DNA of 64,000 nucleotides from an uncultured Acidobacteriota bacterium (GCA_964481255.1 CAYZTZ010000001.1:38236-102235), one strand, 5' to 3'. Positions 13,759-64,000 are shown, counted from the stretch's first letter. The notes: generated by a model not told the origin, from the sequence alone. Numbers and translations: made by a program.

Positions 13759-13833
13759 AGGCGCGTAGCTCAGGGGGAGAGCACTTCCTTGACGCGGAAG
13801 GGGTCAGCGGTTCAAATCCGCTCGCGCCTACCA
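13759..13833 (+). tRNA. tRNA-Val (anticodon GAC)
   Basis: I folded it manually. The acceptor stem AGGCGCG pairs with CGCGCCT, the D-stem GCTC with GAGC, the anticodon stem CTTCC with GGAAG around loop TTGACGC, and the T-stem AGCGG with CCGCT around loop TTCAAAT. The discriminator is A and a CCA end is encoded. Confidence 0.85.
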
Positions 13834-21844: not shown

Positions 21845-22016
21845 CAAACTCCGCCCTTGAAAAACCGACTGCAAAAAAAAGCGCCCCCGCGCCGCCGTGT
21901 GGCTAGTCTATTTGAACCTTGTCGCCAAGGGGGTGTTCTACGCGCTGCGTCAGGCAATCAAGTTCCCGAAGGAAAAGCTCGCACACGGCAGCGCGATACG
22001 AACTCCCATCAAATAG

Positions 22017-22053
22017 AATGTTGGCTCAAATAATTGTCGCCATCACCAACATT
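22017..22053. promoter_or_regulatory. inverted repeat AATGTTGG-N21-CCAACATT inside an AT-rich island
   Basis: This was seen directly in the sequence. The island (22005..22080) lies upstream of ymdB and downstream of the barrel gene, and is a candidate operator/promoter. Confidence 0.2.
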
Positions 22054-22287
22054 GCAGGGGCTTATTATATATTACTTGAGTCCGCGCCCCGGGTCAAGGA
22101 ATCCGCGCGGGTGCGCGGGGGGATCACGCTATTTGGCGGCAGGGAGCCGGGCCGGGGGCGCCGGAGGACTAAAGACGCGCCACCCCCGGTCGCGTCCCCT
22201 TCCAGTTAGTGCCCGCCCCATATCCCGGTCATGCGCAGTCCTTCGTCCCATGCGTCCGCGGAATCCTTGGGGCCGGACCGCATGCGT

Positions 22288-43667: not shown

Positions 43668-44052
43668 TATCGCCGGAGTCGGCCAGGCAATCGCGTCCCT
43701 GTCCTCAGGGCCGAGGAAAGTCCGAACTCCACAGGGCGGTGTGCCTCGTAACACGAGGGAGGGGCGACCCTACGGAAAGTGCCACAGAAAACATACCGCC
43801 TCGCGCGGCGAGGTAAGGGTGAAAAGGTGCGGTAAGAGCGCACCGCGCCGCTGGTAACAGCGGCGGCACGGTAAACCCCACACGGAGCAAGGTCAAATAG
43901 AAAAGCGATTCCTGCAAGGGATAAGGACGGCCCGTCCGATGCTTTTGGGTAGACCGCTGGATCCCCGGGGCGACCCGGGGACTAGATGAATGATTGCCGT
44001 CCCTGCGCCGCAGGGAAACAGAATTCGGCTTACGGCCGGCTCCGGCGACACA
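43668..44052 (+). ncRNA. rnpB: RNase P RNA, bacterial type A
   Basis: It has the conserved blocks GAGGAAAGTCCG.ACTCCACAGGGCG, GTAAGGGTGAAAAGGTGCGGTAAGAGCGCACC, GGTAACAGCGGCGGCACGGTAAACCCCAC.CGGAGCAAGGTCAAATAG and CTAGATGAATGATTGCCG...ACAGAATTCGGCTTAC. The P1 helix TCGCCGGAGTCGGCC pairs with GGCCGGCTCCGGCGA. Confidence 0.9.
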
Positions 44053-47813: not shown

Positions 47814-48917
47814 TCACGTCCGGCCGCGGACCTGGCCGTCCAGCTTCTTCCGGGCCGCTTCCACCACCTGTTCCACCGTAATGCGCGTCATGCATCGGAA
47901 ATCCGTCGGGCATCGTCTCAAGAAGCAGGGGCTGCAGTCGACGGGCTGTTTCAGCACGGTCGCCTGAGGACTGAGGGGCCCGGTGGCGACCTCGCTTGTG
48001 GACCCGAAGATGGCCAGCTGGGGAACGTCCAGCGCCGCCGCCAGGTGCATAGGCCCGGAATCGTTCGTGATCAGCAGGCTGCATTCGCGGATCAATCCCA
48101 TCAGCTCCCCGAGCGTGGTGCGGCCCGCCAGGACCACGGACGGCCGGGCCATCTTCGCCGCAACTTCGTCCGCGACGCGACGGTCGGCGGCGGATCCGAA
48201 AATCAAAACGCGCGCCCGATACTGTTCCGCCAGGGCATCCGCCGCCCGGGCGTAGCGGTCGGGGAACCAGCGCTTGGCCTCGCCGTAATAGGCTCCGGGA
48301 TTCAGACCTATCACGATGTCCCCCGGGCGCACTCCGGCGGAGCGGAGAATGCCTTCGGCCGCGAGACGGTCGGCTTCCCGCACCCGGAGGCCGGCGCGAA
48401 GCGGTTGATCCGCGCGTTCCCACGGGCGGTCCTCGAGCAGGCCGGCGCCGGCGAGGATCCCCAGATAATAGTAGGCCTGGTGGAGGTCTCGCACCGCGGG
48501 ATCTATCCGGCACGCGTGCGTGAGAAGCCATCCCCGTCCGTCGCGCGCGTAGCCGATCCGGATCGGTATCCGGGCGCTCCAGGCGATCCACGCGGCCTCG
48601 AATGCGTTCTGCAGAAGGATAGCCAGGTCGAAGCGGCGGCGCTTCAGGTCGTACACGAGCCGCATGAGCCCCGACAATCCGCGGTGCGCGCCCCCCTTGT
48701 CGTAATCGAGGACCTCGTCCACGAATTCGGCCGCGGCGTAGATGTCGCGCACCCAGGGACGCACAAGGAGCGAGATCTTCGCCTCCGGGAACAGGCGGCG
48801 GATCTCGCGCATGGCCGGAACGGCGATCACGGAATCCCCGACCCAGTTGGTGCCGCGTATTAGAATATTCCGCGCGCCTTCTATTTTGCGAAACTTCACC
48901 GGCGTCCCTCCGCGCAA
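47814..48917 (-). CDS. waaF: ADP-heptose:LPS heptosyltransferase II (GT9 family)
   Basis: The N-terminal NILIRGTNWVGDSVIAVPAMREIRRLFPEA is the GT9 N-terminus, and the C-terminal TNDSGPMHLAAAL motif is also present. Confidence 0.75.
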   Translation of the reverse strand: MRGGTPVKFRKIEGARNILIRGTNWVGDSVIAVPAMREIRRLFPEAKISLLVRPWVRDIYAAAEFVDEVLDYDKGGAHRGLSGLMRLVYDLKRRRFDLAILLQNAFEAAWIAWSARIPIRIGYARDGRGWLLTHACRIDPAVRDLHQAYYYLGILAGAGLLEDRPWERADQPLRAGLRVREADRLAAEGILRSAGVRPGDIVIGLNPGAYYGEAKRWFPDRYARAADALAEQYRARVLIFGSAADRRVADEVAAKMARPSVVLAGRTTLGELMGLIRECSLLITNDSGPMHLAAALDVPQLAIFGSTSEVATGPLSPQATVLKQPVDCSPCFLRRCPTDFRCMTRITVEQVVEAARKKLDGQVRGRT

Positions 48918-49957
48918 GCCTTCAAGGCGGCCTCATAGGCGCCCGCCTCCCGGATCTCGGACGACTGAACCGATACCAGCAGGGGGAAATCCGGAGGTTC
49001 CGTTATCTTGACGGCGTCCTTTTCCGTGACGAGGATGGCGTCCGCCCCCTTTTTGCGGGCCTCCTCGGCGCAGAGCGTCCACTCCCTGCGCCCGATCCTG
49101 TGGTGGTCCGGGAAAAAGCGGGCGCCGCGCACCTCGATGCCGAGAATGCCGACATCGAGCCGGAAGCGCGCGGGATTCCCGATCGCCGCCGCGAGATATG
49201 CCGAGCGCACCGCGGAAACCGGATCGCCGTCTCCGGCGGCGCGGCTCCAGGACGCGAATGGGACGAGAGCCCGGATTCTCTGCCGGCAGTGAAAGACCAT
49301 CGCCTTGCAGCGGAGACGGCGAATCTCCTCTTCAACGGCCGCCGCGGCGGTCTCTTCGGGCGCCTCGTTGAGGACCACCGCGTGGCATCGGCGCAGAGCG
49401 TGCGGCGGTTCGCGGAGCGTCCCCCTGGGGAATACGCGGTCGGAGCCGAGCGGCCGGCTCGCGTCGAGGACGACGATGTCCAGGTCGCGGTGAAGGGCGC
49501 GGTGCTGAAAACCGTCGTCCAGAAGGAAAACCGCATCCGGAGCGTGACGGGCGATGAGACGGCCGGCCCCGTAACGGTCCGCGGAGACGCCCATCCACGC
49601 CGAAGGAACCCGGCGGCGGATCAGGGCCGGTTCGTCCCCGAGAAGGGAAGCGTCCCCATCATCCCCCCGGCCCGGAGGAAGGATGCGCGGCTGCCCGGGA
49701 CGATCCCTTCGGTAACCGCGGGTCAGCACCGCCGGCGTGTAACCCAGGGAGGAAAGGATACCGGCCGCATGGATGACCAGAGGCGTTTTCCCGGTTCCGC
49801 CCAGGGTCAGGTTGCCGACGCTGATCACCGGATTGGGCAGGCGGCGGCGCTTGAGCAATCCTGCGTTATATAGGCCGTTGCGCGCGCGGACGAGCGCTTC
49901 CCAGGCCAGGCCGGGCATCCAGAGCACGGGCGCGAGCGCCGGCGGAATCCTTTCCAT
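48896..49957 (-). CDS. lpxK: tetraacyldisaccharide 4'-kinase
   Basis: It has the LpxK P-loop VISVGNLTLGGTGKTP. The start is chosen at MERIPPAL. Confidence 0.8.
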   Translation of the reverse strand: MERIPPALAPVLWMPGLAWEALVRARNGLYNAGLLKRRRLPNPVISVGNLTLGGTGKTPLVIHAAGILSSLGYTPAVLTRGYRRDRPGQPRILPPGRGDDGDASLLGDEPALIRRRVPSAWMGVSADRYGAGRLIARHAPDAVFLLDDGFQHRALHRDLDIVVLDASRPLGSDRVFPRGTLREPPHALRRCHAVVLNEAPEETAAAAVEEEIRRLRCKAMVFHCRQRIRALVPFASWSRAAGDGDPVSAVRSAYLAAAIGNPARFRLDVGILGIEVRGARFFPDHHRIGRREWTLCAEEARKKGADAILVTEKDAVKITEPPDFPLLVSVQSSEIREAGAYEAALKACAEGRR

Positions 49958-50065
49958 GGCTCCACAGGGTAGCACAAAATCGGCCGGGCCGCGCCCCGCG
50001 GAATCGGATACCGGCTCCGGACGCCCGCCGCCGGGGCGTTTTTTTCTTGCGCCGCGGAAGAGGAT

Positions 50066-50110: not shown

Positions 50111-50554
50111 ATGATCTCCAAGAAGGCGCGGCAGGCGAGGCTGTGGGAGACAGCCCGGAAACGGGAGGTCCGGAGCCAGGAAGAGTTCCTGGCCTTCCTC
50201 CGGAAGGAGGGTGTCGCCGTCACGCAGTCCACCCTTTCGCGGGACATACGGGATCTGGGACTGATCAAGGTCCGCGGCCGGTATCAGGTGCCCGGCGAGG
50301 GACGCCCGGGGCCGCCGGACGATATGCTGCGCCGCGCCCTGTCGCAGTTCGTCGTCCGGACGGGGATGTCGGGGAATATCGTCATGGTGCGGACCTCCCC
50401 GGGGAACGCCCATTCGGTGGCGGTGGTGCTGGACGCCGCCGAGTGGCCGGAGGTCCTGGGCACGGTGGCGGGGGACGACACGGTGTTCGTGCTCGTGCGG
50501 CAGGGCGGCTCGGGCCGAAGGGTGCTTGCGAGAATTCGGGAGTATTCGCAATGA
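50111..50554 (+). CDS. argR: arginine repressor
   Basis: The N-terminal winged helix is ARQARLWETARKREVRSQEEFLAFLRKEGVAVTQSTLSRDIRDLGLIKV, and the C-terminal oligomerization domain contains GTVAGDDTVFVL. Confidence 0.9.
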   Translation: MISKKARQARLWETARKREVRSQEEFLAFLRKEGVAVTQSTLSRDIRDLGLIKVRGRYQVPGEGRPGPPDDMLRRALSQFVVRTGMSGNIVMVRTSPGNAHSVAVVLDAAEWPEVLGTVAGDDTVFVLVRQGGSGRRVLARIREYSQ

Positions 50555-51576
50555 AGATCAGAGCGGGCGTTGTCGGGGTAAGCGGCTATTCCGGGCTGGA
50601 GCTTCTTCGGCTCATGGCGCGCCATCCGTTCATGGAGTGCGTCGCGGCCATGGACGCGGAAGAAATCGGAGAAAGGCCCCTGGAGGAAATCCATCCGTCC
50701 CTGCGCGGCCTATATTGCCTGGCGACTTTCCCGCCGAAAAAGGAGAGGATCGAGGCGCTCGGAATTGACACGGTGTTTCTATGCACGCCGGACAAGGTTT
50801 CCCACGCCCTTGTGCCGGAGCTTCTGGCGCTGGGACTGCGGGTGATCGATTTCAGCGGCGCGTTCCGCCTGAAGGATGCGGCCGCTTATCCCTCCTGGTA
50901 CGGCTTTCAGCACGCCCATCCCGCGTTTCTGGATCTGGCCGTGTACGGCCTGCCCGAATGGAACGCGGGCGCGATCGCGTCGGCGAAGCTGATCGCCAAT
51001 CCGGGATGCTACCCCACGTCCGTCCTTCTGGCCCTGCGGCCCCTGATCCAGTCCGGATTGCTGCAGGCCGGGTCGGATATATTCTGCGACTCCAAATCGG
51101 GCGTGACGGGGGCGGGACGGAGCGTTCGGCAGGAGATGATGTTTTCAGAGGTATCCGATAGTTTTCGTCCTTACAGCCCCATTACCCACCGGCACGTCCC
51201 CGAGATATGCCAGGAACTGGGCTGGGACCTGAAGGCCTTCACCTTCGTGCCCCATCTCCTGCCCATCAACAGGGGCATCCTTTCCACCATGTATGTCCGT
51301 TTTCATCGGCAGGTCCGTTCGGACGAACTGGCGGCGGAATACCAGAAGGGATACTCCGGACGCCGCTTTGTGCGGATCCTGGGCGATTCCCGTCTGCCCG
51401 AGCTGCGGGCGGTGAATCATACGAACTTTTGCGATATTGGATGGCGGCTGACGCACGGAGGGATGGGGGCCATCGTCTTTTCAGCCATCGACAACCTCGT
51501 GAAGGGGGCGTCCGGCCAGGCCGTTCAGAATTTCAACATCATGCACGCGCTCGACGAGAGCGCGGGCCTGCCGTAG
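50551..51576 (+). CDS. argC: N-acetyl-gamma-glutamyl-phosphate reductase
   Basis: The ATG overlaps the argR stop (ATGA). The sequence MKIRAGVVGVSGYSGLELLRL and the catalytic-Cys region NPGCYPTS are present. Confidence 0.95.
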   Translation: MKIRAGVVGVSGYSGLELLRLMARHPFMECVAAMDAEEIGERPLEEIHPSLRGLYCLATFPPKKERIEALGIDTVFLCTPDKVSHALVPELLALGLRVIDFSGAFRLKDAAAYPSWYGFQHAHPAFLDLAVYGLPEWNAGAIASAKLIANPGCYPTSVLLALRPLIQSGLLQAGSDIFCDSKSGVTGAGRSVRQEMMFSEVSDSFRPYSPITHRHVPEICQELGWDLKAFTFVPHLLPINRGILSTMYVRFHRQVRSDELAAEYQKGYSGRRFVRILGDSRLPELRAVNHTNFCDIGWRLTHGGMGAIVFSAIDNLVKGASGQAVQNFNIMHALDESAGLP

Positions 51577-51584
51577 GAGACACC

Positions 51585-52382
51585 GTGCGCATTACCGTGA
51601 AGCTGGGAGGGAGCATTCTGGAGGACGCCGGCGTCCGCATGCGGCTTCTGGAACAGGTCTCGAAGATCTCGGCGCTCGGCCACGAGATCCTTCTGGTGCA
51701 CGGGGGGGGAAAAAGCCTGAGCCGGCGTCTTGAGCAGCTGCGGATTCCCTCCCGGTTTGTGGAGGGTCTGCGCGTGACCGACGCCGAGACCCTGGGAGTG
51801 GCGGTGATGGTGCTCGCGGGCGAGGTGAACAAGAGAATTGTCGCGGAAATGAGCGGGCTGAGCATCCGGGCGGTCGGCATTTGCGGGGCGGACGCCGGCG
51901 CCGTCCGCTGCGTGCGCCTTTCCGATTTGGGGGGATACCCGGAAGATCTCGGTTTCGTGGGGAAACCGTCCGAGGTAAACAGGCCCTTTTTTGAAAGCCT
52001 TTTCGCCTCGGGACTGATCCCTGTTGTATCAAGCATCGCCCTGGGCCCGGATGCCGGGCTCTATAACGTGAACGCAGACCAGATGGCCGCGTGCTGCGCC
52101 TCGGGCACCGGGTGCTCCGCCCTGATCTACCTGACCGACGTCCCGGGCGTAAGAGACGAGAACGGGGCTGTGCTCCGGGACATCGGAGAATTTGAAATAC
52201 TGCAGATGCGCTCGCGGGGAATTCTCTCGGGAGGAATGCTCCCGAAGACCTCCTCATGCCTCGAAGCGCTCGCGGCCGGGGTGGCGTCGGTCTGGATACT
52301 CCCCGGCGCCGGCCCGGATGTGTTGACCGGGTTCATCGATGGGACTCTGACGGAAGGAACGCAGATTCATGGAAACCAATGA
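51585..52382 (+). CDS. argB: acetylglutamate kinase
   Basis: The GTG start lies 5 nt after AGGAGA. The sequence contains ITVKLGGSILED ... LVHGGG ... the amino-acid kinase family fold. Confidence 0.9.
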   Translation: MRITVKLGGSILEDAGVRMRLLEQVSKISALGHEILLVHGGGKSLSRRLEQLRIPSRFVEGLRVTDAETLGVAVMVLAGEVNKRIVAEMSGLSIRAVGICGADAGAVRCVRLSDLGGYPEDLGFVGKPSEVNRPFFESLFASGLIPVVSSIALGPDAGLYNVNADQMAACCASGTGCSALIYLTDVPGVRDENGAVLRDIGEFEILQMRSRGILSGGMLPKTSSCLEALAAGVASVWILPGAGPDVLTGFIDGTLTEGTQIHGNQ

Positions 52383-53616
52383 CGCGGCCCGGCTCAGACC
52401 GGAGGAGATACAATCTCTCGAGGAGCAGTTCCTCTTTCCCACCTATAAAAGGTCCGACCTTTTCTGCTCGCATGGTTCCGGAGCCTATCTTTACGATATG
52501 GCGGGCCGGCGCTATACCGATTTTCTGGCAGGCATTTCCGTCAATTCACTGGGCTATAACCATCCGCGCCTGGTCCGCGCCCTGATAGAGCAGGGGCAGA
52601 GGCTGATACATTGCTCCAATCTCTTCTATCACCCGTACCAAGGCCTCCTGGCCAAGCGTCTCGCGGGAGTTTCCGGCATGGCCAGGGTCTTTTTCACCAA
52701 CAGCGGAACGGAAGCGATCGAGGCCGCGCTCAAGATCGCGCGCGCTTACGGTCGCAGCCGGGGACGGGAAGACAAATCCTTGATCCTGACGCTCAGGAAC
52801 TCATTCCATGGGCGCACGTTCGGCGCCCTCAGCATCACGACGCAGGAGAAATACCAGGCCCCCTTCCGTCCTCTCGTGCCGGACGTCGAGATCGTGCAGG
52901 AATGGACGCGGGAGGCTCTGGAAAGGGCTTTTTCGGACCGGGTCTGCGCCCTGTTTCTGGAGCCGGTTCAGGGCGAAGGAGGCGTGGTCCCGCTTCCGGC
53001 CGATTTTGTCCGCGCCGGGCGCGAGCTGTGCGACCGCTACGACGCGCTTCTGGTCGCGGACGAAATCCAAAGCGGGCTGGGGAGGACCGGCCGGTATTTC
53101 GCTTTCGAACATTACGGGATCCGGCCCGATGTCTTGACACTGGCGAAGTCTCTGGCCGCGGGGTATCCCCTGGGGGCGGCGCTCGGGAACTCGCGGGCTG
53201 CGGAGTGCCTGAAACCGGGAGATCACGGCACCACGTTCGGCGGCGGGCCGCTGGCATGCAGGCTCGCCCTGGAGGTTCTCGATATCATCGAGGAGGAGCA
53301 TCTGATCGACAGGGTCGCGCAGTCGGGGGAATTCCTCGCGCGCGGGCTCCGCGGCCTCGCGGCGCGCCATCCGACCATGGGCGAGATTCGTGCGATGGGT
53401 TTGATGATCGGCGTGGAATTGGGCGGCGCGGCCAAGGAAGTCGTAAACCGCCTTTTGAAAAGGGGATTCATAACGAACGCGGCGCACGAAACCGTCCTGA
53501 GACTTCTGCCTCCCTTCGTTATTTCAAGAAGCGATATCGAGGAGTTCCTGGCCGCCCTCGACGGGGTTCTGAGCGAAATGGAATGCGCGAAGGAAACGAA
53601 GGAATCCCTGAAATAA
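52369..53616 (+). CDS. argD: acetylornithine aminotransferase
   Basis: It has a class III aminotransferase fold. The PLP-lysine region is DEIQSGLGRTGRYFAFEHYGIRPDVLTLAKSLAAG. Confidence 0.95.
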   Translation: METNDAARLRPEEIQSLEEQFLFPTYKRSDLFCSHGSGAYLYDMAGRRYTDFLAGISVNSLGYNHPRLVRALIEQGQRLIHCSNLFYHPYQGLLAKRLAGVSGMARVFFTNSGTEAIEAALKIARAYGRSRGREDKSLILTLRNSFHGRTFGALSITTQEKYQAPFRPLVPDVEIVQEWTREALERAFSDRVCALFLEPVQGEGGVVPLPADFVRAGRELCDRYDALLVADEIQSGLGRTGRYFAFEHYGIRPDVLTLAKSLAAGYPLGAALGNSRAAECLKPGDHGTTFGGGPLACRLALEVLDIIEEEHLIDRVAQSGEFLARGLRGLAARHPTMGEIRAMGLMIGVELGGAAKEVVNRLLKRGFITNAAHETVLRLLPPFVISRSDIEEFLAALDGVLSEMECAKETKESLK

Positions 53617-53627
53617 GGAGTCTTCCG

Positions 53628-54143
53628 ATGGCTGAGACAACCGAAACGGAGCCTGCGGCGACGATGTCCCACGGCCGGGCGATCCATGTCCGCAAGGCCC
53701 GCGTGAGCGATGCGGAGGAGATGTGCCGCATGATCAACTATTACGCGGACCAGCAGCGGATGCTGCCCAAGTCGCTGCTGCAGATTTACGAAAATCTCCG
53801 CGATTACAGCGTCGCGTTCGAGCCTTCCGTCCCGGATCGCCCGATAGGCTGCGGCGCCCTGCATATCTACTGGGAAAACCTGGCCGAGATACGCGCCCTC
53901 GCCGTGGCGCCCGAGATGACGCGGAAGGGGATCGGCCGGGCGCTGGTGGAGAAACTCCTGGAGGAAGCGCGAACGCTTGAAATCGAGCAGGTGTTCTGCT
54001 TCACCTACGAGCCGGCGTTCTTCAGCCGTTTCGGCTTTATCCAGGTGGAACATCGCGCGCTTCCCTTGAAGGTGTACAACGAATGCTTTCACTGTCCCAA
54101 ACTCACAAAATGCGATGAACTCGCCATGGTCCTTCAGCTATGA
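53628..54143 (+). CDS. GNAT family N-acetyltransferase, putative short-form N-acetylglutamate synthase (ArgA-like)
   Basis: This 171 aa protein has a GNAT motif (ALAVAPEMTRKGIGRALVEKLLEEA). It is embedded between argD and argJ and coupled to argJ (ATGA). Confidence 0.5.
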   Translation: MAETTETEPAATMSHGRAIHVRKARVSDAEEMCRMINYYADQQRMLPKSLLQIYENLRDYSVAFEPSVPDRPIGCGALHIYWENLAEIRALAVAPEMTRKGIGRALVEKLLEEARTLEIEQVFCFTYEPAFFSRFGFIQVEHRALPLKVYNECFHCPKLTKCDELAMVLQL

Positions 54144-55387
54144 GTCGAATGCGCGCGCAACGTTCCAGGGTTCGGCCCGAGGCCGAATGGCGTTTGATTG
54201 AAGGCGGCATTACGGCGCCCCAGGGATTTCTCGCCTCGGGAGTGTCGGCCGGAATAAAGAAAAAAGGTCTCGACCTCGCCGTCGTATTTTCCTCGCAGCC
54301 GGCGTCGGCCGCGGGAGTTTTCACGCTGAATCGGGTGCAGGCGGCGCCCGTTGTCCTGAGCAGGCAGAATCTGAAAACGTCGCGGGGCCGCGCCAGCGCG
54401 GTGCTGATCAATTCAGGGTGCGCGAATGCCTGCACGGGGGACCGGGGGATGCGCGACGCGCGCATCAGCACCCGGTGTCTGGCGTCGCATCTCCATGTGG
54501 ATCCATGCAGGGTCCTGGTGGCGAGCACCGGCGTCATAGGGAGCTTTCTGCCCGTCCCCAAGGTCCTGAAGGGAATATCGGCGGCCGTCAGCGCCCTGAA
54601 TTCGAGAGGCGGGAGCGCGGCGGCCCGGGCGATCATGACGACCGATACCCGCGAGAAATCGATCGCCGTGGAAGGGCGTATCGCAGGCCAAACCGTCCGC
54701 ATCGGCGGAATGGCCAAGGGGGCCGGCATGATTCACCCGCAGATGGCGACCATGATTTCCATCCTCACCACCGACGCGCAGATTCAGCCGGGAATCCTCA
54801 ACAGGGCCCTGCGCCACGCGGCCGACCGCACCTTCAACTGCCTGACCATCGACGGGGACACGTCCACCAACGACACCCTTCTCATACTGGCCAACGGCGC
54901 TTCCAGCGCCCCCGTCGCCGACCGCCGTTCCATCTCCTTTTTCGAGAACGGGCTTACGATGATCTGTGAAGAACTGTCCAAGAGCATAGCCAGAGACGGG
55001 GAAGGCGCCACAAAGTTCGTGGAGATACTGGTGCGGGGAGCGGCGGATTTTGAAAGCGCGCGCAGAGTGGCCAAGACGATAGCCCATTCCCCCCTGGTCA
55101 AGACTGCGCTTTATGGAGAAGAGCTCAACTGGGGCCGGATCCTGTGCGCCGTCGGATACAGCGGAGTGCCTTTTGATCCGGAAAGGGTTTCCTTAAGCCT
55201 CAACGGGATACCCGTTTTCCGGAACGGCTCGCCCGTCGGCTCGACCCGCTCGCGCGCCGAAAAGGCCATGAAAGACCGCGATCTCCAGATTGAGGTGGAT
55301 CTTGCGGGAGGGCGCTCCTCGGCCAGGGTCTGGACCTGCGATCTGAGCCGCGGCTACGTCGATATCAACGCAAGCTATATCTCTTAG
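54140..55387 (+). CDS. argJ: bifunctional glutamate N-acetyltransferase/amino-acid acetyltransferase ArgJ
   Basis: The N-terminus is ITAPQGFLASGVSAGIKK. An autoproteolytic ATML-type site is present as PQMATMISILTTD. Confidence 0.95.
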   Translation: MSRMRAQRSRVRPEAEWRLIEGGITAPQGFLASGVSAGIKKKGLDLAVVFSSQPASAAGVFTLNRVQAAPVVLSRQNLKTSRGRASAVLINSGCANACTGDRGMRDARISTRCLASHLHVDPCRVLVASTGVIGSFLPVPKVLKGISAAVSALNSRGGSAAARAIMTTDTREKSIAVEGRIAGQTVRIGGMAKGAGMIHPQMATMISILTTDAQIQPGILNRALRHAADRTFNCLTIDGDTSTNDTLLILANGASSAPVADRRSISFFENGLTMICEELSKSIARDGEGATKFVEILVRGAADFESARRVAKTIAHSPLVKTALYGEELNWGRILCAVGYSGVPFDPERVSLSLNGIPVFRNGSPVGSTRSRAEKAMKDRDLQIEVDLAGGRSSARVWTCDLSRGYVDINASYIS

Positions 55388-55866: not shown

Positions 55867-57420
55867 ATGACAGACCGAGTACTCATATTCGACACGACAT
55901 TGAGAGACGGGGAACAGTCCCCAGGGGCCAGCATGACCATCCAGGAGAAACTGATGCTGGCGCGGCAGCTTGAGAAGTTAAGGGTAGACATCATTGAAGC
56001 CGGGTTCCCGATCTCCTCGGACGGGGATTTTGAATCCGTTCGGCGTATAGCCGGGGAAATCCGCACGGTCACCATCGCCGGACTGGCCAGGGCCAATAAG
56101 GGCGATATCGACCGTTGCTGGGAGGCCGTGCGTCATGCCGCAAAGCCAAGAATTCATGTGTTTATCGCAACATCCGATATACATCTAAATTACAAGTTAA
56201 AGAAAACAAGGGAGGAGGCGCTGGAGGAGGCCAGACAGGCGGTCCAATATGCCAAATCACTCTGCCAGGACGTCGAATTCTCTGCGGAGGATTCCACACG
56301 GTCGGATCTGCCCTATTTATGCAAGGTCGTGGAGGCGGTAATCGACGCTGGAGCGACGGTGGTCAACATCCCGGACACCGTGGGTTATACCTTCCCGACC
56401 GAATACGCCGAGCGGATCCGATACATCCGGGCAAATGTCCCCAACATCGGCCGCGCCATCCTTTCCGTCCATTGCCACAACGACCTTGGACTGGCTGTCG
56501 CCAACTCGCTGGTGGCCATTCAGAACGGTGTGCGGCAGGTCGAATGCACCGTCAACGGAATCGGCGAACGCGCGGGCAACGCCTCGCTCGAGGAAATCGT
56601 GATGACCCTGCGCACGCGCAAGGACCTCTTCGACGTGGAATCCGGGATCAATACGAGGGAAATCTATCCTTCCAGCGCCATGCTGACCAATCTCACAGGC
56701 ATGATGGTTCAGCCGAACAAGGCCATCGTGGGGCGAAACGCCTTTGCCCACGAAGCGGGCATTCACCAGGACGGGGTGATCAAGGAAAAGCTCACGTATG
56801 AGATCATGCGTCCGGAAGACGTCGGGATCAAGGAGAGCAGACTTGTAATGGGAAAGCATTCCGGGCGCCACGCGTTGCGTCAGCGTTACAAGGAGCTGGG
56901 ATTCGATCTGAGCGACGCCGAGCTGGAGAAGGCCTATGTCCTGATTAAAAAAGTCGCGGACAAAAAGAAGGCGGTCTACGACGAAGACCTGATCATAACG
57001 GTCCGCGATGCCCTGAGGATCGCAACGCCCGTGTACAAGATCAAGAACATCCATTCCATAGCCGGTAACCAGGTTATTGCCACGACGACCATCGTGCTTG
57101 AAAAGGAAGGGAAGACTTACACGGACTCCGCCACTGGAGACGGCCCGGTGGATTCCGCCCTGAAGGCGATCAACAGAATCACGGGGGTGAAGGGCAGGCT
57201 TGAGGAATACAGCGTCCACAGCGTGACGAGCGGAGGAGACGCCGTGGGCGAGGTGTTCATGAAAGTTGTCTTCGAAAAAGTCACTTTCATCGGCAGGGCG
57301 GCCAGCCTGGATATTGTCGACGCCAGCGCGCGCGCCTATTTGGACGCCGTCAACAAGATGATCCATTATCAGGAGGCCCTGCAGACCCAGAAAGGGGAGG
57401 ACCCGCCTCAGGCTGTTTAG
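55867..57420 (+). CDS. leuA: 2-isopropylmalate synthase
   Basis: The sequence contains RVLIFDTTLRDGEQSPGASM and the HCHNDLGLAVANSL TIM-barrel motifs, plus a C-terminal LeuA dimerization/regulatory domain. Confidence 0.95.
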   Translation: MTDRVLIFDTTLRDGEQSPGASMTIQEKLMLARQLEKLRVDIIEAGFPISSDGDFESVRRIAGEIRTVTIAGLARANKGDIDRCWEAVRHAAKPRIHVFIATSDIHLNYKLKKTREEALEEARQAVQYAKSLCQDVEFSAEDSTRSDLPYLCKVVEAVIDAGATVVNIPDTVGYTFPTEYAERIRYIRANVPNIGRAILSVHCHNDLGLAVANSLVAIQNGVRQVECTVNGIGERAGNASLEEIVMTLRTRKDLFDVESGINTREIYPSSAMLTNLTGMMVQPNKAIVGRNAFAHEAGIHQDGVIKEKLTYEIMRPEDVGIKESRLVMGKHSGRHALRQRYKELGFDLSDAELEKAYVLIKKVADKKKAVYDEDLIITVRDALRIATPVYKIKNIHSIAGNQVIATTTIVLEKEGKTYTDSATGDGPVDSALKAINRITGVKGRLEEYSVHSVTSGGDAVGEVFMKVVFEKVTFIGRAASLDIVDASARAYLDAVNKMIHYQEALQTQKGEDPPQAV

Positions 57421-57661: not shown

Positions 57662-58495
57662 ATGCTTCATGTAGCGGCGGGATCGAGGGTGGCTTTTCAG
57701 GGCGAGCCGGGGGCTTTCAGCCATCGCGCGGTGCGCAAGATATTCGGCCCGGCGATCCGGCCTGTTCCCTGTCGCGCCTTTGAAGATGTTTTCGAAGCGG
57801 TGGCGGAGAAAACCGCCGGATTCGCCGTAATCCCCATCGAGAACTCCCTGGCGGGGAGCATTCACCAGAATTTCGACCTTCTTGCCAAGCATTCGCTCGA
57901 GGTGGTCGCGGAAACCTACCTGCGTGTCGAACATAGCCTGATAGCGCACAGGGGTGTCAGCCTGCGCGGAATCCGGCAGATTTATTCGCATCCGGCGGCC
58001 ATGGAGCAGTGCCAGCGCCTGCTCCGGCGGCTCAGATCTGTAGAGAAGGTTTCCTTCTACGATACGGCGGGCAGCGTCAAATTCATCCGGGACAAGGGGC
58101 TCAGGCATGCGGCGGCCATCGCGAACGAGGAGGCCGCGAGGATTTACGGCATGAAGATCCTGCGCCGGGGAGTCGAGGACGACCCGGAGAACTACACCCG
58201 CTTTCTGGCCTTGGCGCGCCGGGGAATATTCCCGCGCGGCGGAGCCAAAACCAGCATCGTCTTCGGGCTGGAGGATGAGCCGGGCGTGCTCTTCAAAGCC
58301 TTGTCGGTTTTCGCTTTACGGAATATCGATCTGACCAAGATCGAGTCGCGCCCGATCCGCGGAAAGCCCTGGGAGTATCTTTTCTATCTGGATTTCCGCA
58401 GCGACATACGCAGCCGTGAATGCATCAACGCCCTCAGGCATCTCCGCGAGCTGGCGCCCTACCTGAAGATCCTCGGCTCCTATCCGACACTATAG
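57662..58495 (+). CDS. pheA: prephenate dehydratase (PDT + ACT domains)
   Basis: It has a PDT domain (VAFQGEPGAFSH ... ESRP) and a C-terminal ACT domain (TSIVFGLEDEPGVLFKALSVFALRNIDLTKIESRP). Confidence 0.9.
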   Translation: MLHVAAGSRVAFQGEPGAFSHRAVRKIFGPAIRPVPCRAFEDVFEAVAEKTAGFAVIPIENSLAGSIHQNFDLLAKHSLEVVAETYLRVEHSLIAHRGVSLRGIRQIYSHPAAMEQCQRLLRRLRSVEKVSFYDTAGSVKFIRDKGLRHAAAIANEEAARIYGMKILRRGVEDDPENYTRFLALARRGIFPRGGAKTSIVFGLEDEPGVLFKALSVFALRNIDLTKIESRPIRGKPWEYLFYLDFRSDIRSRECINALRHLRELAPYLKILGSYPTL

Positions 58496-58861
58496 ATCCG
58501 CCTAAGGTCATGGGAAATCGTCCGCGGCCGCGCGGACCAGTATCGCGGCTCAACCGGCAGCGAAGATGATTCGGAGGCCCGGAGCGCTGCTTTGCTCCAC
58601 AAAAGGTTTAAAATGAATACATTCGACCCCGCCCGGGAGAGTGCCCGGCAACAGCCCTTGGGAGTGGTCGAGGGAAAGCTGCGTGGATCGATATCCGCCT
58701 TCTTCCTTTGAATCGGCGTCTTTGCAGACGGCTTTCATCCTGAAGGAGTTCCGTTGCCCATTCCATCGTCATTTCCCCTGGCAGCAGGTGATGAGTTTTC
58801 AGCCTGATCTTTGCCTTCGTCATGTTACAATCTGCGGTTTGAATCGGACGGGGAGAGACTT

Positions 58862-59923
58862 ATGGTGCGCGCGGTCATAGCCGGAAGCGGCTCCTGCATT
58901 CCGCCGAACCGGGTTACCAATGCCATGCTATCCAGAATAATGGATGCCGGCGACGATTGGATCCGGGAGCGCAGCGGGGTGGAAACGCGCTATTATGTGG
59001 ACGAAGGCACCGCGACATCCGACCTCGGGGCCGCCGCCTCCGCAGCAGCACTTGAGGCCGCCGGCGTGGACAAGGACGCTCTGGACCTGATTGTCTTCGC
59101 CACCATGACCCCCGACTATTTTTTCCCGGGAAGCGGCGCGCTTCTCCAGGCCAAGCTGGGTATCAGGGGGGTCCCCTGTTTCGACATACGCCAGCAATGC
59201 GCCGGATTTCTATACGGCCTGCAGCTGGCGGATGCGCACATCCGTTCAGGCCTGGCCGAGACCGTGCTGCTCGTCGGGGCCGAGACGCACACGGGCTTCA
59301 TGCCCTGGAGCGCGGAGAATTACAATTATCTTTACGGCAGGACGGAGACACCCCCGACCCCCGAGGAATATGCCTGGAATACGCGTTTCCGGAACGTGAC
59401 CGTGCTGTTCGGCGACGCCGGGGCCGCCGTTGTCCTGAGGGCGGAAGATAGCGAGCGCGGCGTCCTCGACAGCATCCTGCGCACCGACGGAAGCGATTAC
59501 GATAAGATTTATGTTCCGGGCGCGGGTTTCAAGCATCGGCCTTATGTGGACGCCGAACAGTTAAAGAGAGGGGATCACATCCCCGTCATGAACGGGATGT
59601 CGGTCTACAGAAACGCCGCCAACTGCATGGCCGACGTCACGAGGGAGATCCTGGAACGAAACAACCTGAAACTTCAGGATATTTCCCTGGTCCTGATGCA
59701 TCAGGCCAACAAGCGCATCAACGAGCGCATCCAGAGGATGCTGGCCATACCCGACGACAAAGTGATCCACAATATTCACAAATACGGCAACACGACGGCG
59801 GCGACCATCCCGTTGCTCTGGGACGAAGCCGCACGCTCGGGCCGAATCAAGCCCGGCGATCTGGTTCTCATGGTCGCCTTCGGGGCGGGGATGAACTGGG
59901 GCGCCGTGCTGCTGCGCGCCTGA
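58862..59923 (+). CDS. 3-oxoacyl-ACP synthase III family protein (FabH-like KAS III, long variant)
   Basis: It has the Cys-His-Asn triad context (QQCAGFLYGL, LMHQAN, YGNTTAATIPL). A roughly 30 aa insertion makes it 353 aa. Confidence 0.75.
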   Translation: MVRAVIAGSGSCIPPNRVTNAMLSRIMDAGDDWIRERSGVETRYYVDEGTATSDLGAAASAAALEAAGVDKDALDLIVFATMTPDYFFPGSGALLQAKLGIRGVPCFDIRQQCAGFLYGLQLADAHIRSGLAETVLLVGAETHTGFMPWSAENYNYLYGRTETPPTPEEYAWNTRFRNVTVLFGDAGAAVVLRAEDSERGVLDSILRTDGSDYDKIYVPGAGFKHRPYVDAEQLKRGDHIPVMNGMSVYRNAANCMADVTREILERNNLKLQDISLVLMHQANKRINERIQRMLAIPDDKVIHNIHKYGNTTAATIPLLWDEAARSGRIKPGDLVLMVAFGAGMNWGAVLLRA

Positions 59924-59995
59924 GCCGGACGCCCGGGCGGTGATCCGGCCGGGCCCGGATTGACGGCGGCTCTTGATTTGTGAGGCTTCGTGAAT

Positions 59996-61654
59996 ATGCC
60001 CAAGGGACTGGATAAAGAGACTCTTGATTTGACGCTGGAATCCTTGAAGGACTTCACCGCTTCCAGGCTGCCGGACAAGAAAATTCTGGAGCTGGACGCG
60101 ACGGAGGAATTCCCTTCGGATATCGTGCGGGAAATGTGCGGCTCCGTGTTGGGGATTCAGCTCCTGTTCATACCCGAGGAGTTTGAGGGCATGGGGGGAG
60201 GAGCCTTCGATGTTTACAGGGTTTGCGAGGAGCTGGCGCGGGTGGACCTGGGCGTGGCCACCGGCGTGCTGGCCACTTTCCTGGGAAGCGATCCGATCAT
60301 TTTCGGAGGCACATACGAGCAGAAGAAGCTGTGGATGACGCGCATCGGCCAGGAAGGACTCCTTATGGCCTATGGGGCGACCGAGCCGGAGGCCGGCAGC
60401 GATCTGGCGGCTCTGCGAACGGTCGCCGAACCCGTCATGAAAGACGGCAAGGTCGAGGGCTACAGGATAACCGGGAACAAACAGTGGATCAGCAACGGCG
60501 GCTACGCGGACCTGTATTGCGTTCTCGCGCGTGCGCCCGGCGGGCCGAGCTGGTTCGTCGTCGAAAAGGGAGCACCGGGACTCAGTCACGGCAAGCCCGA
60601 AGACAAGCACGGAATCCGCGCCAGCAACACGGCCACCGTATCCCTCGAAGGGGTCTATGTGGACGCCGACCGTCTGGTCGGCGGGAAAGAGGGACAGGGA
60701 TTAGTCCAGGCACAGTTGGTGTTCGGATATACGCGGCTCATGGTCGCCGCCTTCGGTCTGGGCGCCGGCTGGGCGGCCCTCGACCGGGCCATCCCGTATT
60801 CCATGGGACGCATTCAGGGAGGGGCGCCTCTTTCCGAAAAGCAGGGATACACGCACAAGCTTATCGTGCCTCATGCCGTGCGGCTGGAAACCGCCAGGGC
60901 CTTTATTGAAGAGACGGCCGAACGCATCGACAACGAGGAAGGGAACCTGAACACGGAAGGCGCCATCGCAAAATACCTCGCCACGGAAGCCGGCAATCTC
61001 GCGGCCGACGCCTCCATTCAGGCGCTCGGGGGGTACGGCTACACCCGGGAATATATGGTGGAGAAGATCAAGCGCGACGCCCGCATCACCACCATCTATG
61101 AGGGGACGTCCGAGATAATGGAAATGACGATCTGCCGCGACCGCTGGCAGTCCCACCTCAAGACCCACGGCCGGTATTATCACGATCAAGCCCGGGAGAT
61201 GGAGGAACTCCATGGGCGGAGCCCGCATCTGGGAGCGCAAACCATAGCCTGCGGCCTGCACGCCCTTGCGGAACTGCTCGAGGCGGCAAGGGCGCAAAGG
61301 CTGACAAGGCATCAGCATATTCTGTTCAGGCTGGGAGAATGGATCGCCCATGCCGAAGGCGCCGCCAGTCTTGCGCGAAGGGCGGCCCGGGCGGCCCAGG
61401 GGAACCTGAATCCCAAAGCCCATTCGCGGTTTACTCCCGGGAGCCTGGCTGCCTTCAGCCGCATATCCGCCCGGGACTCGGCGATGAAGGTGGCTGCTGA
61501 AGGGATGCGATGGATCGGGGGCCTCCTCCCGGAGGCGGAGGCTTCGAAGCTGGAGCAGAAACTGTCGATGCAGGCGATACACCGCGCGCAGGCGGGATTG
61601 CTGCAGGATATGGACTATGCGGCCGACATCCTTTACGGAAGGGCCCGGTCCTAG
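59996..61654 (+). CDS. acyl-CoA dehydrogenase family protein (long form, about 550 aa)
   Basis: It has the ACAD N, middle and C domains ([15 protein letters not shown] ... [33 protein letters not shown]) plus a roughly 170 aa C-terminal extension. Confidence 0.8.
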
Positions 61655-61687
61655 AATTCCGCATGATTATTCGGAGGCGTTGAGAGA

Positions 61688-64000
61688 ATGAAAGTATCAG
61701 CGGCTGAAAAAGCGGTTGCGATTGTCGGAATTGGCTCCTTGATGCCGGACGCGCCCAACACGCCGAGATTCTGGCAGAACATCAGGGAAGGGCGCTACAG
61801 CATCACGGAAGTCCCTCTTGATCGCTGGGACGCGAACCTCTATTACGACCCTGATCCCAAAGCCCCGGATAAGACCTACACCAAGATCGGGGCATGGGTG
61901 CGGGAATGGGAATGGGACCCCCTGAAATGGAAACTGCCGATCCCGCCGCGGGTGAGCCAGGCCATGGACCTCACTCAAAAATTCGCCGTGATCACGGCGC
62001 GCGAGGCCCTGAGCGATTACGGCTATCCGTCGCGCGCGCTCAACGCCGAGCGCACAGCCGTAATCATCGGCAATGCGATGGCCGGCGACACCCATCTCTA
62101 TTCCGCCGCCCGCATATTGTTTCCGGAATTCGCCGAGGAACTGATCAAGTCTCCCGGCTATGCTTCTCTGCCCCCGGAAGTGCGGAAGGCGATCCTGGAA
62201 CAGTTCCACGAAGGCATTCGCCGCAGAACACCCTCCATCACCGAAGACACCATGCCCGGGGAACTGGCCAATATCATCGCCGGGCGCATCGCCGCCCTTT
62301 ACGACTTCAAGGGCCCGAATTTCGTCGCCGACGCCGCCTGCGCCTCGGCGATGGCGGCCATTTACGCGGCCGTGGAGGGACTGAACGACAACCACTACGA
62401 CGCCGTCCTTACAGGCGGAATCGACACGAACATGAGCCCCTCCACCTTCGTGAAGTTCTGCAAGATCGGTGCTCTTTCCGCGACGGGAAGCCGGCCTTAT
62501 GCCGAAGGCGCGGACGGTTTCGTCATGGGCGAAGGCGCGGTCGTCTTCCTCCTGAAGCGTCTGTCGGACGCCGAGCGCGACGGCGACAGGATCTACGCCG
62601 TCATCCGCGCCCTGGGAGGGTCCAGCGACGGCAAAGGGAAGGGCATCACCGCGCCCAATCCCGTGGGGCAGAAACTCTGCGTCCAGAGGGCCTGGAAAAA
62701 CGCTGAAGTCACTCTGTCCGCCGGAGACTATATTGAGGGGCACGGCACCTCGACGGCGGTGGGAGACGTCACGGAACTGGAGTGTCTCAACGAGGCGCTC
62801 AAGGAGTTCGGGCTGCCGGTCGCTTCCATCGCCCTCGGCTCGGTCAAATCCAACATCGGGCATCTTAAGGGCGCCGCCGGCGCCGCGGGAATGCTGAAGG
62901 CGGCGCTCGCCCTGCATCACAAGGAACTGCCTCCGAGCCTGAATTTTCAAAGGCCCAATCCCAATATCGATTTTTCCAAATCCCCTTTCTATGTCAACAC
63001 GGAGCTGAGACCGTGGGACGTTAAACCGGGCGGCGTGCGGCGCGCCGGAGTCAGCGCCTTCGGGTTCGGCGGGACCAATTTCCATATGGTCATGGAAGAA
63101 TATATCCCGGGGAGAATAGCAGGCGAGAGAAGAGCCCTCATTTCCATTGCGGAAACAGGACGCGGCGCGGACGAGCCCGCGGGCCTCAAAGCCCCGTTGC
63201 GCGGAGCGATGTTGCTGGGCGCCGATTCGGAAGGTGAGCTCCTGATCCGCCTGCGCAGGGTCCATCAGGAAGCCTCCTCCGGCAAGGCGCCCGCTGCGGC
63301 TCCCCCCCTGGAATCCGATCTTCGCGCGAAGTTCCGCCTGGCCATCGACTACGCGAACGCCTCCGAACTGGCCGACAAGGCGGGGAAGGCGATAAAGGCA
63401 TTTGAGGAAAACCAGCCCGGGAGATGGAAGGCGCTGCGCGCCAAAGGGATCTTTCTCGGAAAAGGACCCGTCCCCAAGGTCGCCTTCCTTTTCACCGGCC
63501 AGGGATCCCAATACGTCAACATGCTCGAGAATCTACGGGCCTCCGAACCCGTCGTCGCACGGACTTTCGAGGAAGCCGATCGCGTCATGACGCCGATTCT
63601 GGGCAGGACGCTGACAAGCTGCATTTACCAGGACGAAGTGGACGAAGCAGCCTTTGCGGCCGCGGAGGAGGGTTTAAAACAGACCGCCATCACTCAGCCC
63701 GCGGTCCTGACCGCCGAAATCGCTCTTGCCCGCCTGATCGGCGCTTACGGCATCCAGCCGGATATGGTTATGGGCCACAGCCTCGGCGAATACGGCGCGC
63801 TGGTCGCGGCCGGCTCGATCTCATTTGAAGAGGCGCTGAAGGCCGTGAGCGCCCGCGGCAATGAGATGACGCGGTGCGCTCTGGATGACAACGGGATGAT
63901 GGCCGCGGTTTTCGGGCCCATCGATAAGATCGACGGGATCCTGGGGACGGTCGACGACTATGTCGTCATCGCGAATATCAACAGCACCCGGGAAGCCGTC
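61688..64000 (+). CDS. PfaA-like type I polyketide / PUFA-type synthase, KS-AT didomain visible, 3' partial (runs off window)
   Basis: An ATG at 61688 opens a frame to the window end. The N-terminus resembles PUFA synthase PfaA (AIVGIGSLMPDAPNTPRFWQNIREGRYSITEVPLDRWDANLYYDPDPKAPDKTYTKIGAW). The KS has its active Cys (ADAACASAMAAIYAA) and HGTST; the AT domain has GHSLGEY. The ORF track missed this because no stop falls in the window. Confidence 0.85.
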   Translation, partial: MKVSAAEKAVAIVGIGSLMPDAPNTPRFWQNIREGRYSITEVPLDRWDANLYYDPDPKAPDKTYTKIGAWVREWEWDPLKWKLPIPPRVSQAMDLTQKFAVITAREALSDYGYPSRALNAERTAVIIGNAMAGDTHLYSAARILFPEFAEELIKSPGYASLPPEVRKAILEQFHEGIRRRTPSITEDTMPGELANIIAGRIAALYDFKGPNFVADAACASAMAAIYAAVEGLNDNHYDAVLTGGIDTNMSPSTFVKFCKIGALSATGSRPYAEGADGFVMGEGAVVFLLKRLSDAERDGDRIYAVIRALGGSSDGKGKGITAPNPVGQKLCVQRAWKNAEVTLSAGDYIEGHGTSTAVGDVTELECLNEALKEFGLPVASIALGSVKSNIGHLKGAAGAAGMLKAALALHHKELPPSLNFQRPNPNIDFSKSPFYVNTELRPWDVKPGGVRRAGVSAFGFGGTNFHMVMEEYIPGRIAGERRALISIAETGRGADEPAGLKAPLRGAMLLGADSEGELLIRLRRVHQEASSGKAPAAAPPLESDLRAKFRLAIDYANASELADKAGKAIKAFEENQPGRWKALRAKGIFLGKGPVPKVAFLFTGQGSQYVNMLENLRASEPVVARTFEEADRVMTPILGRTLTSCIYQDEVDEAAFAAAEEGLKQTAITQPAVLTAEIALARLIGAYGIQPDMVMGHSLGEYGALVAAGSISFEEALKAVSARGNEMTRCALDDNGMMAAVFGPIDKIDGILGTVDDYVVIANINSTREAV

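Follow-up and report, generated by a model that had tools for sequence, protein, structure and literature searches.

A truncated member of the Type R secondary lipid synthase family, next to an acyl-CoA dehydrogenase gene, in an uncultured Acidobacteriota bacterium

What do three adjacent genes for a condensing enzyme, an acyl-CoA dehydrogenase (ACAD) and a giant synthase make, and do they belong together at all? The question is raised by the end of a 64,000-nucleotide stretch of DNA from an uncultured Acidobacteriota bacterium (GCA_964481255.1, CAYZTZ010000001.1:38236-102235; "the window" is the whole of this stretch), where three plus-strand genes, for a FabH-type enzyme, an ACAD and a synthase whose open reading frame (ORF) runs off the end, fill the final 5.1 kb. 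The original prediction, made from the sequence, was of a dedicated pathway for an unusual membrane lipid or polyketide. The genes match their first description throughout. By orthology, we identify the locus as a truncated new member of the Type R family of secondary lipid synthases catalogued by Shulse & Allen (2011, PLoS One 6:e20146; PMC3098273), solid but ordinary by itself. Its interest comes from features of the family: an apparently obligate ACAD, linkage to genes for electron transfer flavoprotein (ETF), EtfD and acetyl-CoA carboxylase (ACC), a second ketosynthase (KS) predicted to be active, and carrier domains with threonine (Thr) at the attachment site. We lean towards the view that the three genes form the start of a Type R lipid synthase operon, nearest to its promoter, in which an iterative synthase lacking an enoyl reductase (ER) would have the ACAD as its redox partner.

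The synthase and its full-length orthologues

The synthase gene starts at an ATG with GGAGG 12 nt upstream. The part of it that lies in the window comprises a KS and half of an acyltransferase (AT):

61688-64000, plus strand: first 771 codons of a PfaA-like, iterative synthase gene of type I, ATG at 61688, open to the last base
61709-63106, plus strand: KS domain, aa 8-473 (Pfam ketoacyl-synt, Ketoacyl-synt_C, KAsynt_C_assoc)
62330-62350, plus strand: KS motif DAACASA (Cys218)
62735-62755, plus strand: KS motif EGHGTST (His352)
62852-62869, plus strand: KS motif NIGHLK (His392)
63107-63475, plus strand: KS-AT linker, aa 474-596, between the Pfam KS and AT matches and covered by the PfaA model alignment
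63476-64000, plus strand: malonyl-type AT, N-terminal half, aa 597-771 (Pfam Acyl_transf_1 positions 2-156 of 319)
63497-63511, plus strand: AT motif GQGSQ
63773-63793, plus strand: AT motif GHSLGEY
63851-63868, plus strand: AT motif ARGNEM

The predicted order, a PfaA-type KS followed by an AT within about 770 codons, is thus borne out. The KS-AT fragment scores 516.1 bits against PfaA (TIGR02813, model positions 7-757), 468 against PKS_plus_SDR, 361 against Pks13 and 217 against FabF, and the AT half-domain scores 121 bits against fabD. Judged by these profile scores, the proximal KS appears to group with pfaA-type KSs, and not with those of type II fatty acid synthesis (FAS II), where the housekeeping FabF/FabB enzymes would be found, or of modular polyketide synthases (PKSs).

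For comparison, homologues were surveyed in 80 genome loci with KS-AT identities of 53-81%, drawn from Acidobacteriota, Actinomycetota, Chloroflexota, Gemmatimonadota, Bacteroidota, Proteobacteria, Myxococcota, Calditrichia, Binatia and Dormibacterota. Adjacency of the ACAD was counted over the 74 loci with sufficient upstream sequence and that of FabH over 70 loci, active-site conservation in the synthase was judged on 36 full-length homologues, and carrier repeats were also read in metagenome loci (synthase homologue loci L004-L133). The closest KS-AT relative is 81% identical among the genome representatives and 79% in the metagenomes, and over its full 771 aa the window fragment shares 71-81% identity with the N-terminal part of orthologues from Acidobacteriota, which are 2,800-2,930 aa long. 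All matches listed by the KS-AT homology search were at most 1,332 aa long and mostly partial, hence uninformative on architecture. Two metagenome contigs from the Joint Genome Institute (JGI), of 33 kb and 3 kb and from different samples, are identical to the window, FabH and ACAD included, and both stop at window position 62404, 239 codons into the synthase ORF and just past the KS active-site motif; this shared end probably stems from strain variation or from a break in the assembly graph where the KS region is conserved. Since the window ends and these public contigs break even earlier, the rest of the synthase has to be read from relatives.

In metagenome-assembled genomes of Acidobacteriota, the orthologues of the closest clade are single ORFs of 2,805-2,929 aa. 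Their domain order is KS, malonyl-CoA:acyl carrier protein acyltransferase (MAT), KS, three to four acyl carrier protein domains (ACPs), ketoreductase (KR) and dehydratase (DH), and the genes run leuA-like, pheA, FabH, ACAD, PKS and then phosphopantetheinyl transferase (PPTase). The synthase of locus L005 may serve as an example, with a KS at aa 1-470, the AT at 600-900, the second KS at ~1010-1520, three PP-binding repeats, the KR at ~2200-2450 and a polyketide synthase-type dehydratase (PS-DH) at 2530-2800; a 229-aa Sfp/HetI-type PPTase gene follows directly. A PPTase lies downstream of the synthase in clade relatives L004, L005, L006, L011, L013, L014, L016 and L022. In none of the readable syntenic orthologues does the ORF end soon after the AT, and the ACP, KR and DH domains that had been expected beyond the window are present in them. 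In place of the chain length factor (CLF) that had also been named, a condensing domain without catalytic cysteine, the orthologues have a second KS. In the 36 full-length homologues, both KSs keep an invariant Cys/His/His, the AT motifs GHSxG and malonyl-type HAFH (the latter past the window end in the gene studied here) are likewise invariant, and the KR Tyr and the His...P and ExxxQ motifs of the DH are conserved. As the second KS keeps its Cys/His/His, it is no classical Cys-less CLF, and we predict that this "CLF" is an active KS.

The same relatives bear on whether the locus could be a canonical polyunsaturated fatty acid (PUFA) synthase, for eicosapentaenoic, docosahexaenoic or arachidonic acid (EPA/DHA/ARA), or an ole, hgl or aryl-polyene cluster. 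In favour of this, no family scores better than PfaA, the alignment starting at model position 7, and OleA enzymes are FabH-like. However, neither pfaB, pfaC (KS-CLF with FabA-type DH2), pfaD (the ER) nor any thioesterase or other ER gene was found within 10 kb on either side of the synthase in clade relatives, and the full-length L005 synthase falls below the PfaA cut-off (945.9 versus 1010.1 bits). The condensing enzyme of the window meets fabH cut-offs, with no oleB, oleC or oleD-like genes in the window or in clade relatives, and, whereas aryl-polyene systems are type II, the synthase combines its domains in one type I protein. Comparison with pfa, ole, hgl and ary clusters thus gave no canonical match, and no FabA-type DH lies nearby in the relatives either; with their defining companion genes lacking there, these readings were rejected and we regard them as very improbable. 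For the products that had been named, PUFA, olefin or diacid, there is no specific support. The broader reading as a lipid or polyketide pathway stands, because the orthologues continue well past the AT and the KS scores as PfaA-type.

At the attachment site of the carrier domains, the repeats read LG(I/V)DTVK in 195 of 195 cases in the genome loci and in all metagenome repeats (L005:14891-15874, synthase aa ~1640-1960, is the carrier region of L005). The Thr aligns with the phosphopantetheine Ser of PigH and of Streptomyces ACPs. No alternative Ser was found within the carrier core, and the PP-binding repeats (PF00550) of the relatives thus lack the Ser of the (D/G)xDS(L/I) phosphopantetheine motif; an unrelated PKS in locus L134 has the usual ELGLDSLM. 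The carrier domains of the window gene lie past the window end and, going by the family, would bear Thr as well. In the literature searched we found no report of threonine phosphopantetheinylation, and the S36T variant of E. coli ACP is not known to be modified by AcpS. Thr-bearing carriers, if used for phosphopantetheine, would represent an unreported mode of phosphopantetheinylation.

The acyl-CoA dehydrogenase and FabH and their proposed roles

The gene directly upstream of the synthase encodes an enzyme whose architecture appears to be that of very-long-chain acyl-CoA dehydrogenase (VLCAD):

59996-61654, plus strand: ACAD of 552 aa (554 from GTG 59990), VLCAD-type architecture with three Pfam ACAD domains
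61094-61117, plus strand: catalytic Glu motif IYEGTSEI, whose Glu aligns with IYEGT of medium-chain acyl-CoA dehydrogenase (MCAD)
61145-61651, plus strand: C-terminal extension, aa 384-552, helical and family-specific by structure model and profile searches

PF02771, PF02770 and PF00441 all match within aa 11-381, and the protein aligns to MCAD with 202 bits over aa 31-383. We take the Glu of IYEGTSEI to be the counterpart of the catalytic base E376 of MCAD. Beyond these domains comes the C-terminal extension of 170 aa that had been noted at first reading, modelled entirely as helices with a predicted local distance difference test score (pLDDT) above 90 for aa 390-545. The extension alone gave only noise and no significant match, VLCAD included, in a search of PDB sequences, and only 275 representatives among 1.84 billion match it at E<=1e-3. 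Residues invariant in it across phyla include T437, R438, Q440, H441, G447, E454, R489, R493 and D538. With the full-length model, Foldseek placed VLCAD, 3owa, 2z1q and ACAD9 at the top over ~580 columns, at a TM score of only ~0.47, the core of the model being poor; the profile alignment extends to residue 529 of 3owa. An ACAD fold with its Glu in YEG, followed by a helical C-terminal domain of ~170 aa as modelled, would resemble the VLCAD family (human VLCAD and ACAD9, 3owa from B. anthracis, 2z1q from T. thermophilus). Unlike in that family, the core is nearer by sequence to MCAD and butyryl-CoA dehydrogenases (202 versus 140 bits), the extension has no significant VLCAD sequence match, and the gene stays tied to a PKS gene across genomes.

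In 71 of the 74 loci, which come from many phyla, the synthase has an ACAD gene immediately upstream on the same strand. The gap between them has a median of 53 nt and a minimum of -6 nt, and ACAD identity follows KS-AT identity across loci with r=0.97. These regularities suggest that the ACAD is a conserved partner of the synthase. They also argue, as does a C-terminal domain that defines a compact dedicated family, against a merely coincidental neighbourhood of a housekeeping FabH, a beta-oxidation ACAD and an independent secondary-metabolite PKS. Such a coincidence would fit the housekeeping flanks (the arg operon, the leuA-like gene and pheA, and serA in relatives), the position of the ACAD behind etfD-etfBA in other lineages, as in beta-oxidation, and the FabH itself (see below); for the locus as a whole we consider it quite improbable.

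In Terriglobales and Solirubrobacterales relatives, the ACAD is preceded by genes for a ~705-aa EtfD-like oxidoreductase, which combines a 4Fe-4S dicluster with a CCG domain, and for EtfB and EtfA:

L023:4274-8205: etfD-etfB-etfA before the ACAD; also in L025, L026, L029-L032, L036, L037, L041, L043, L058, L063-L065, L068, L071 and L078
L057:14557-19353, L045:17719-22347 and L069:6308-10231: examples of a giant ACC gene

The etf genes form a tight same-strand string with the ACAD-synthase pair in Terriglobales and lie on the opposite strand in several Solirubrobacterales loci; they are absent from the window and from its closest clade. In 20 loci of non-clade relatives the synthase is directly followed by the giant ACC, a eukaryote-like single chain of more than 1,600 aa with biotin carboxylase (BC), biotin carboxyl carrier protein (BCCP), ACC_central and carboxyltransferase (CT) domains, and in L052 a two-subunit carboxylase (CT and BC) lies directly upstream of the synthase. 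With etf and ACC genes beside the synthase, anabolic and redox genes thus share one operon in these relatives. The enoyl-CoA/acyl-CoA couple lies at about -10 mV and menaquinone at about -74 mV, so that an enoyl reduction driven by quinol would be exergonic. Mycobacterial EtfD connects ETF with the respiratory chain at the membrane (Beites et al. 2021, PMC8593149). The EtfD-like protein of the relatives has the same domain architecture, with EtfB and EtfA encoded before the ACAD; in contrast to the mycobacterial chain, synthase and ACC genes belong to the same operon-like string here.

The first of the three genes is the one whose membership is least certain:

58862-59923, plus strand: FabH-type beta-ketoacyl-ACP synthase III (KAS III), 353 aa (Pfam ACP_syn_III and ACP_syn_III_C, NCBIfam)
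59303-59386, plus strand: FabH insertion, aa 148-175, a net gain of ~25 residues over solved FabH structures

The protein lies above both curated NCBIfam cut-offs (TIGR00747 and NF006829; 305.9 versus 292.1 and 329.3 versus 249), has an intact Cys114/His280/Asn310 triad in QQCAGF, MHQAN and YGNTTAA, and is matched by FabH structures in the PDB at 224 bits. The insertion that had been suspected in this 353-aa enzyme is real: the alignment with 4dfe_A falls into two stretches, query residues 5-147 and 176-352 pairing with chain residues 13-161 and 165-332. The 120 best homologues measure 327-373 aa and nearly all of them 353-355 aa, hence the insertion is conserved in the subfamily. The window protein thus resembles KAS III (TIGR00747) in cut-offs and triad and differs from it in the insertion and in heading a PKS operon in its clade. 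No other fab or acpP genes were found in the window. Of the 70 loci, only 12 have a FabH gene adjoining the ACAD-synthase pair, and these belong without exception to the closest acidobacterial clade; the linkage is therefore lineage-specific and, as housekeeping thresholds are also passed, operon membership is uncertain. FabH probably primes the synthase in the closest clade, the alternative being a plain housekeeping KAS III, and for this gene alone a coincidental neighbourhood is plausible.

How might these parts work together? In the scheme that we lean towards, the truncated ORF would be the start of a ~2,800-aa iterative type I synthase, KS-MAT-KS'-ACP(3-4)-KR-DH by orthology, with its own Sfp/HetI-type PPTase encoded next. 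The AT, with HAFH in the homologues, would load malonyl units onto the tandem carrier domains, and repeated condensation, ketoreduction and dehydration would build a long acyl chain with two catalytically intact KSs and with neither ER nor thioesterase. FabH, with its 25-aa insertion and added at the head of the operon in the clade, would supply the starter beta-ketoacyl unit. The VLCAD-type ACAD would act at C2-C3 of the acyl thioester and supply the missing enoyl reduction, with electrons drawn from the menaquinol pool via ETF/EtfD. This role as an ER surrogate, which fits the co-operonic ACC and would make the product a largely saturated fatty acyl chain, is proposed only tentatively as to direction, desaturation being the alternative.

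Several points weigh against this scheme. In the window organism itself the synthase is readable only as far as the AT half-domain, and the ACAD model is poor in its catalytic core (mean pLDDT 66). Three loci have no adjacent ACAD, and no substitute ER was found near them. FabH, as described, meets housekeeping thresholds and adjoins the pair in few loci, and a housekeeping ER of FabI/FabK type could serve in trans. No characterization of a Type R enzyme activity or product after the 2011 catalogue was found in the literature searched. Finally, VLCAD-type ACADs, ETF and EtfD classically belong to oxidative catabolism (PMC8593149).

This last point also feeds a serious rival, in which the ACAD is an oxidative, desaturating enzyme and the product a conjugated polyene. 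Here an ER-less polyene-type PKS would make a conjugated polyene or polyunsaturated chain, in the manner of enediyne or aryl-polyene systems, with the ACAD as tailoring dehydrogenase or desaturase passing electrons to ETF and quinone. The orthologues' set of KS, AT, ACP, KR and DH with a PPTase and without an ER is that of the enediyne polyketide synthases (PKSE), and natural-product acyl-carrier dehydrogenases are among the ACAD matches (the prolyl-ACP dehydrogenase 4irn, and the MbtN, PigA and RedW models). Yet the best hidden Markov model is PfaA, tandem ACPs and dedicated ACCs fit high-flux fatty-acyl synthesis, and neither enediyne accessory genes nor a thioesterase lie downstream in the relatives. 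We rate this rival as unlikely, serious as it is. A far-reaching form of the enoyl-reduction scheme is more doubtful still: the whole family, in at least nine phyla, would be an unrecognised fatty-acid/polyketide machine of type I coupled to the respiratory chain, with two active KSs, PPTase-installed Thr-phosphopantetheine carriers and no ER using NAD(P)H, its place being taken by a VLCAD-type flavoprotein wired to menaquinone through ETF/EtfD.

Transcription and chromosomal setting

All three genes are co-directional, as had been observed, with gaps of 72 nt between FabH and ACAD and 33 nt between ACAD and synthase. With Pfam E-values of 1e-22 to 1e-57, they cannot be chance ORFs; long spurious antisense ORFs are also present in the DNA here, which has a GC content of 61%. 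One candidate promoter element precedes the genes:

58821-58832, plus strand: CATGyTACAATC motif, extended -10-like (TGnTACAAT), ~30 nt upstream of the FabH start codon

When the sequences upstream of FabH in the window and in five clade members are aligned, this motif is the sole conserved block, and it is likely to be the operon promoter; a sigma-70 consensus scan did not pick it out. A terminator scan found no plus-strand terminator-like site in either intergenic gap, and this, together with the conserved -10-like motif, makes co-transcription of FabH, ACAD and PKS plausible. No inverted repeats were found upstream of FabH, and no Rfam elements in the 57-64 kb part of the window.

The surroundings are ordinary core chromosome, with tgt, yajC, secDF, exbBD, relA, recA, lipopolysaccharide (LPS) core genes and lpxK, and no compositional anomaly was found at the cluster. 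An arginine biosynthesis operon (argR-argC-argB-argD-GNAT acetyltransferase-argJ) occupies 50111-55387, followed by a gene resembling leuA or citramalate synthase (55933-57420) and by pheA (57662-58495); relatives keep the leuA-like gene and pheA adjoining FabH. In the 366-nt region between pheA and FabH, a 62-aa minus-strand ORF called by JGI (58550-58738), with no Pfam match, may be spurious. At 48001-50000, where the lpxK and glycosyltransferase-9 genes close the minus-strand LPS-core cluster (~44.2-50.0 kb), the GC fraction climbs to 0.68, compared with ~0.61 elsewhere. The only Rfam or ARAGORN matches in the whole window are three RNA genes:

43675-44047, plus strand: RNase P RNA, class A (317 bits)
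21880-22063, minus strand: 6S RNA (75 bits)
13759-13833, plus strand: tRNA-Val (GAC) (Rfam/ARAGORN)

Downstream of the synthase, the clade relatives have the PPTase, a protein of 240-270 aa, serA and an aldo-keto reductase. The 240-270-aa protein is conserved, comes after the PPTase in eight closest-clade loci (for example L005:19292-20101, L004:19575-20297 and L022:20306-21028) and has no Pfam or NCBIfam match. A further apparent gene family downstream in Actinomycetota loci ("comp 12") was rejected, as it consists of spurious antisense ORFs in high-GC DNA.

Comparison with known synthase families

PfaA of the pfaABCDE clusters is the best-scoring family and shares with the Type R relatives the order KS-MAT-tandem ACPs-KR-DH (with a PKS-type DH), a malonyl-specific AT and iterative logic. 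The family differs from PfaA in an extra, apparently active KS between AT and ACPs, and from PfaA systems in having Thr instead of Ser in the ACPs and in the lack of PfaB, PfaC and PfaD; without PfaC and PfaD there is neither an ER nor a FabA-type dehydratase/isomerase for cis double bonds. The enediyne PKSE, which are related to the PUFA-type KS clade, are likewise ER-less iterative type I PKSs with a dedicated PPTase function. However, PKSE carry a single ACP and a fused PPTase and are partnered by thioesterase and UNB genes. Nothing of this was seen in the Type R relatives, where a second KS and tandem ACPs are found instead. One 2023 metagenome survey found PUFA-type KS genes to be the second most abundant class of type I KS, and more than 92% of the pfaA-type KS domains from metagenomes had no place in a clade whose product is known (PMC10308959).

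Type R itself was defined by one pfaA homologue, KS-MAT-CLF-ACP(3-6)-KR, with a downstream PPTase, in Candidatus Koribacter versatilis, Candidatus Solibacter usitatus, Roseiflexus and Elusimicrobium, i.e. in Acidobacteria, Chloroflexi and Elusimicrobia; the Koribacter locus has an intercalated ACC gene, and the product was uncharacterised (PMC3098273). The orthologues described here agree with it in the series KS-MAT-second KS-ACPs-KR with PPTase, in their occurrence in Acidobacteria and scattered phyla, and in an occasional ACC linkage. They differ in that the second condensing domain, "CLF" in that paper, has an invariant Cys-His-His, and in the FabH that is added in the closest acidobacterial clade only. 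The term-searched text of PMC3098273 contains no mention of a C-terminal PS-DH, an upstream ACAD, ETF/EtfD or a Thr carrier motif. As far as that text goes, the consistently adjacent ACAD, the apparently active second KS and the Thr carriers would be new relative to the 2011 catalogue. The comparative data thereby turn a vague "PfaA-like cluster" into testable propositions on the ACAD as partner, the Thr carriers and an active "CLF". Type R is an orphan family in dominant soil phyla (Acidobacteriota, Actinomycetota, Chloroflexota and Gemmatimonadota), and the identity of its product would extend the lipid biochemistry of those soil bacteria.

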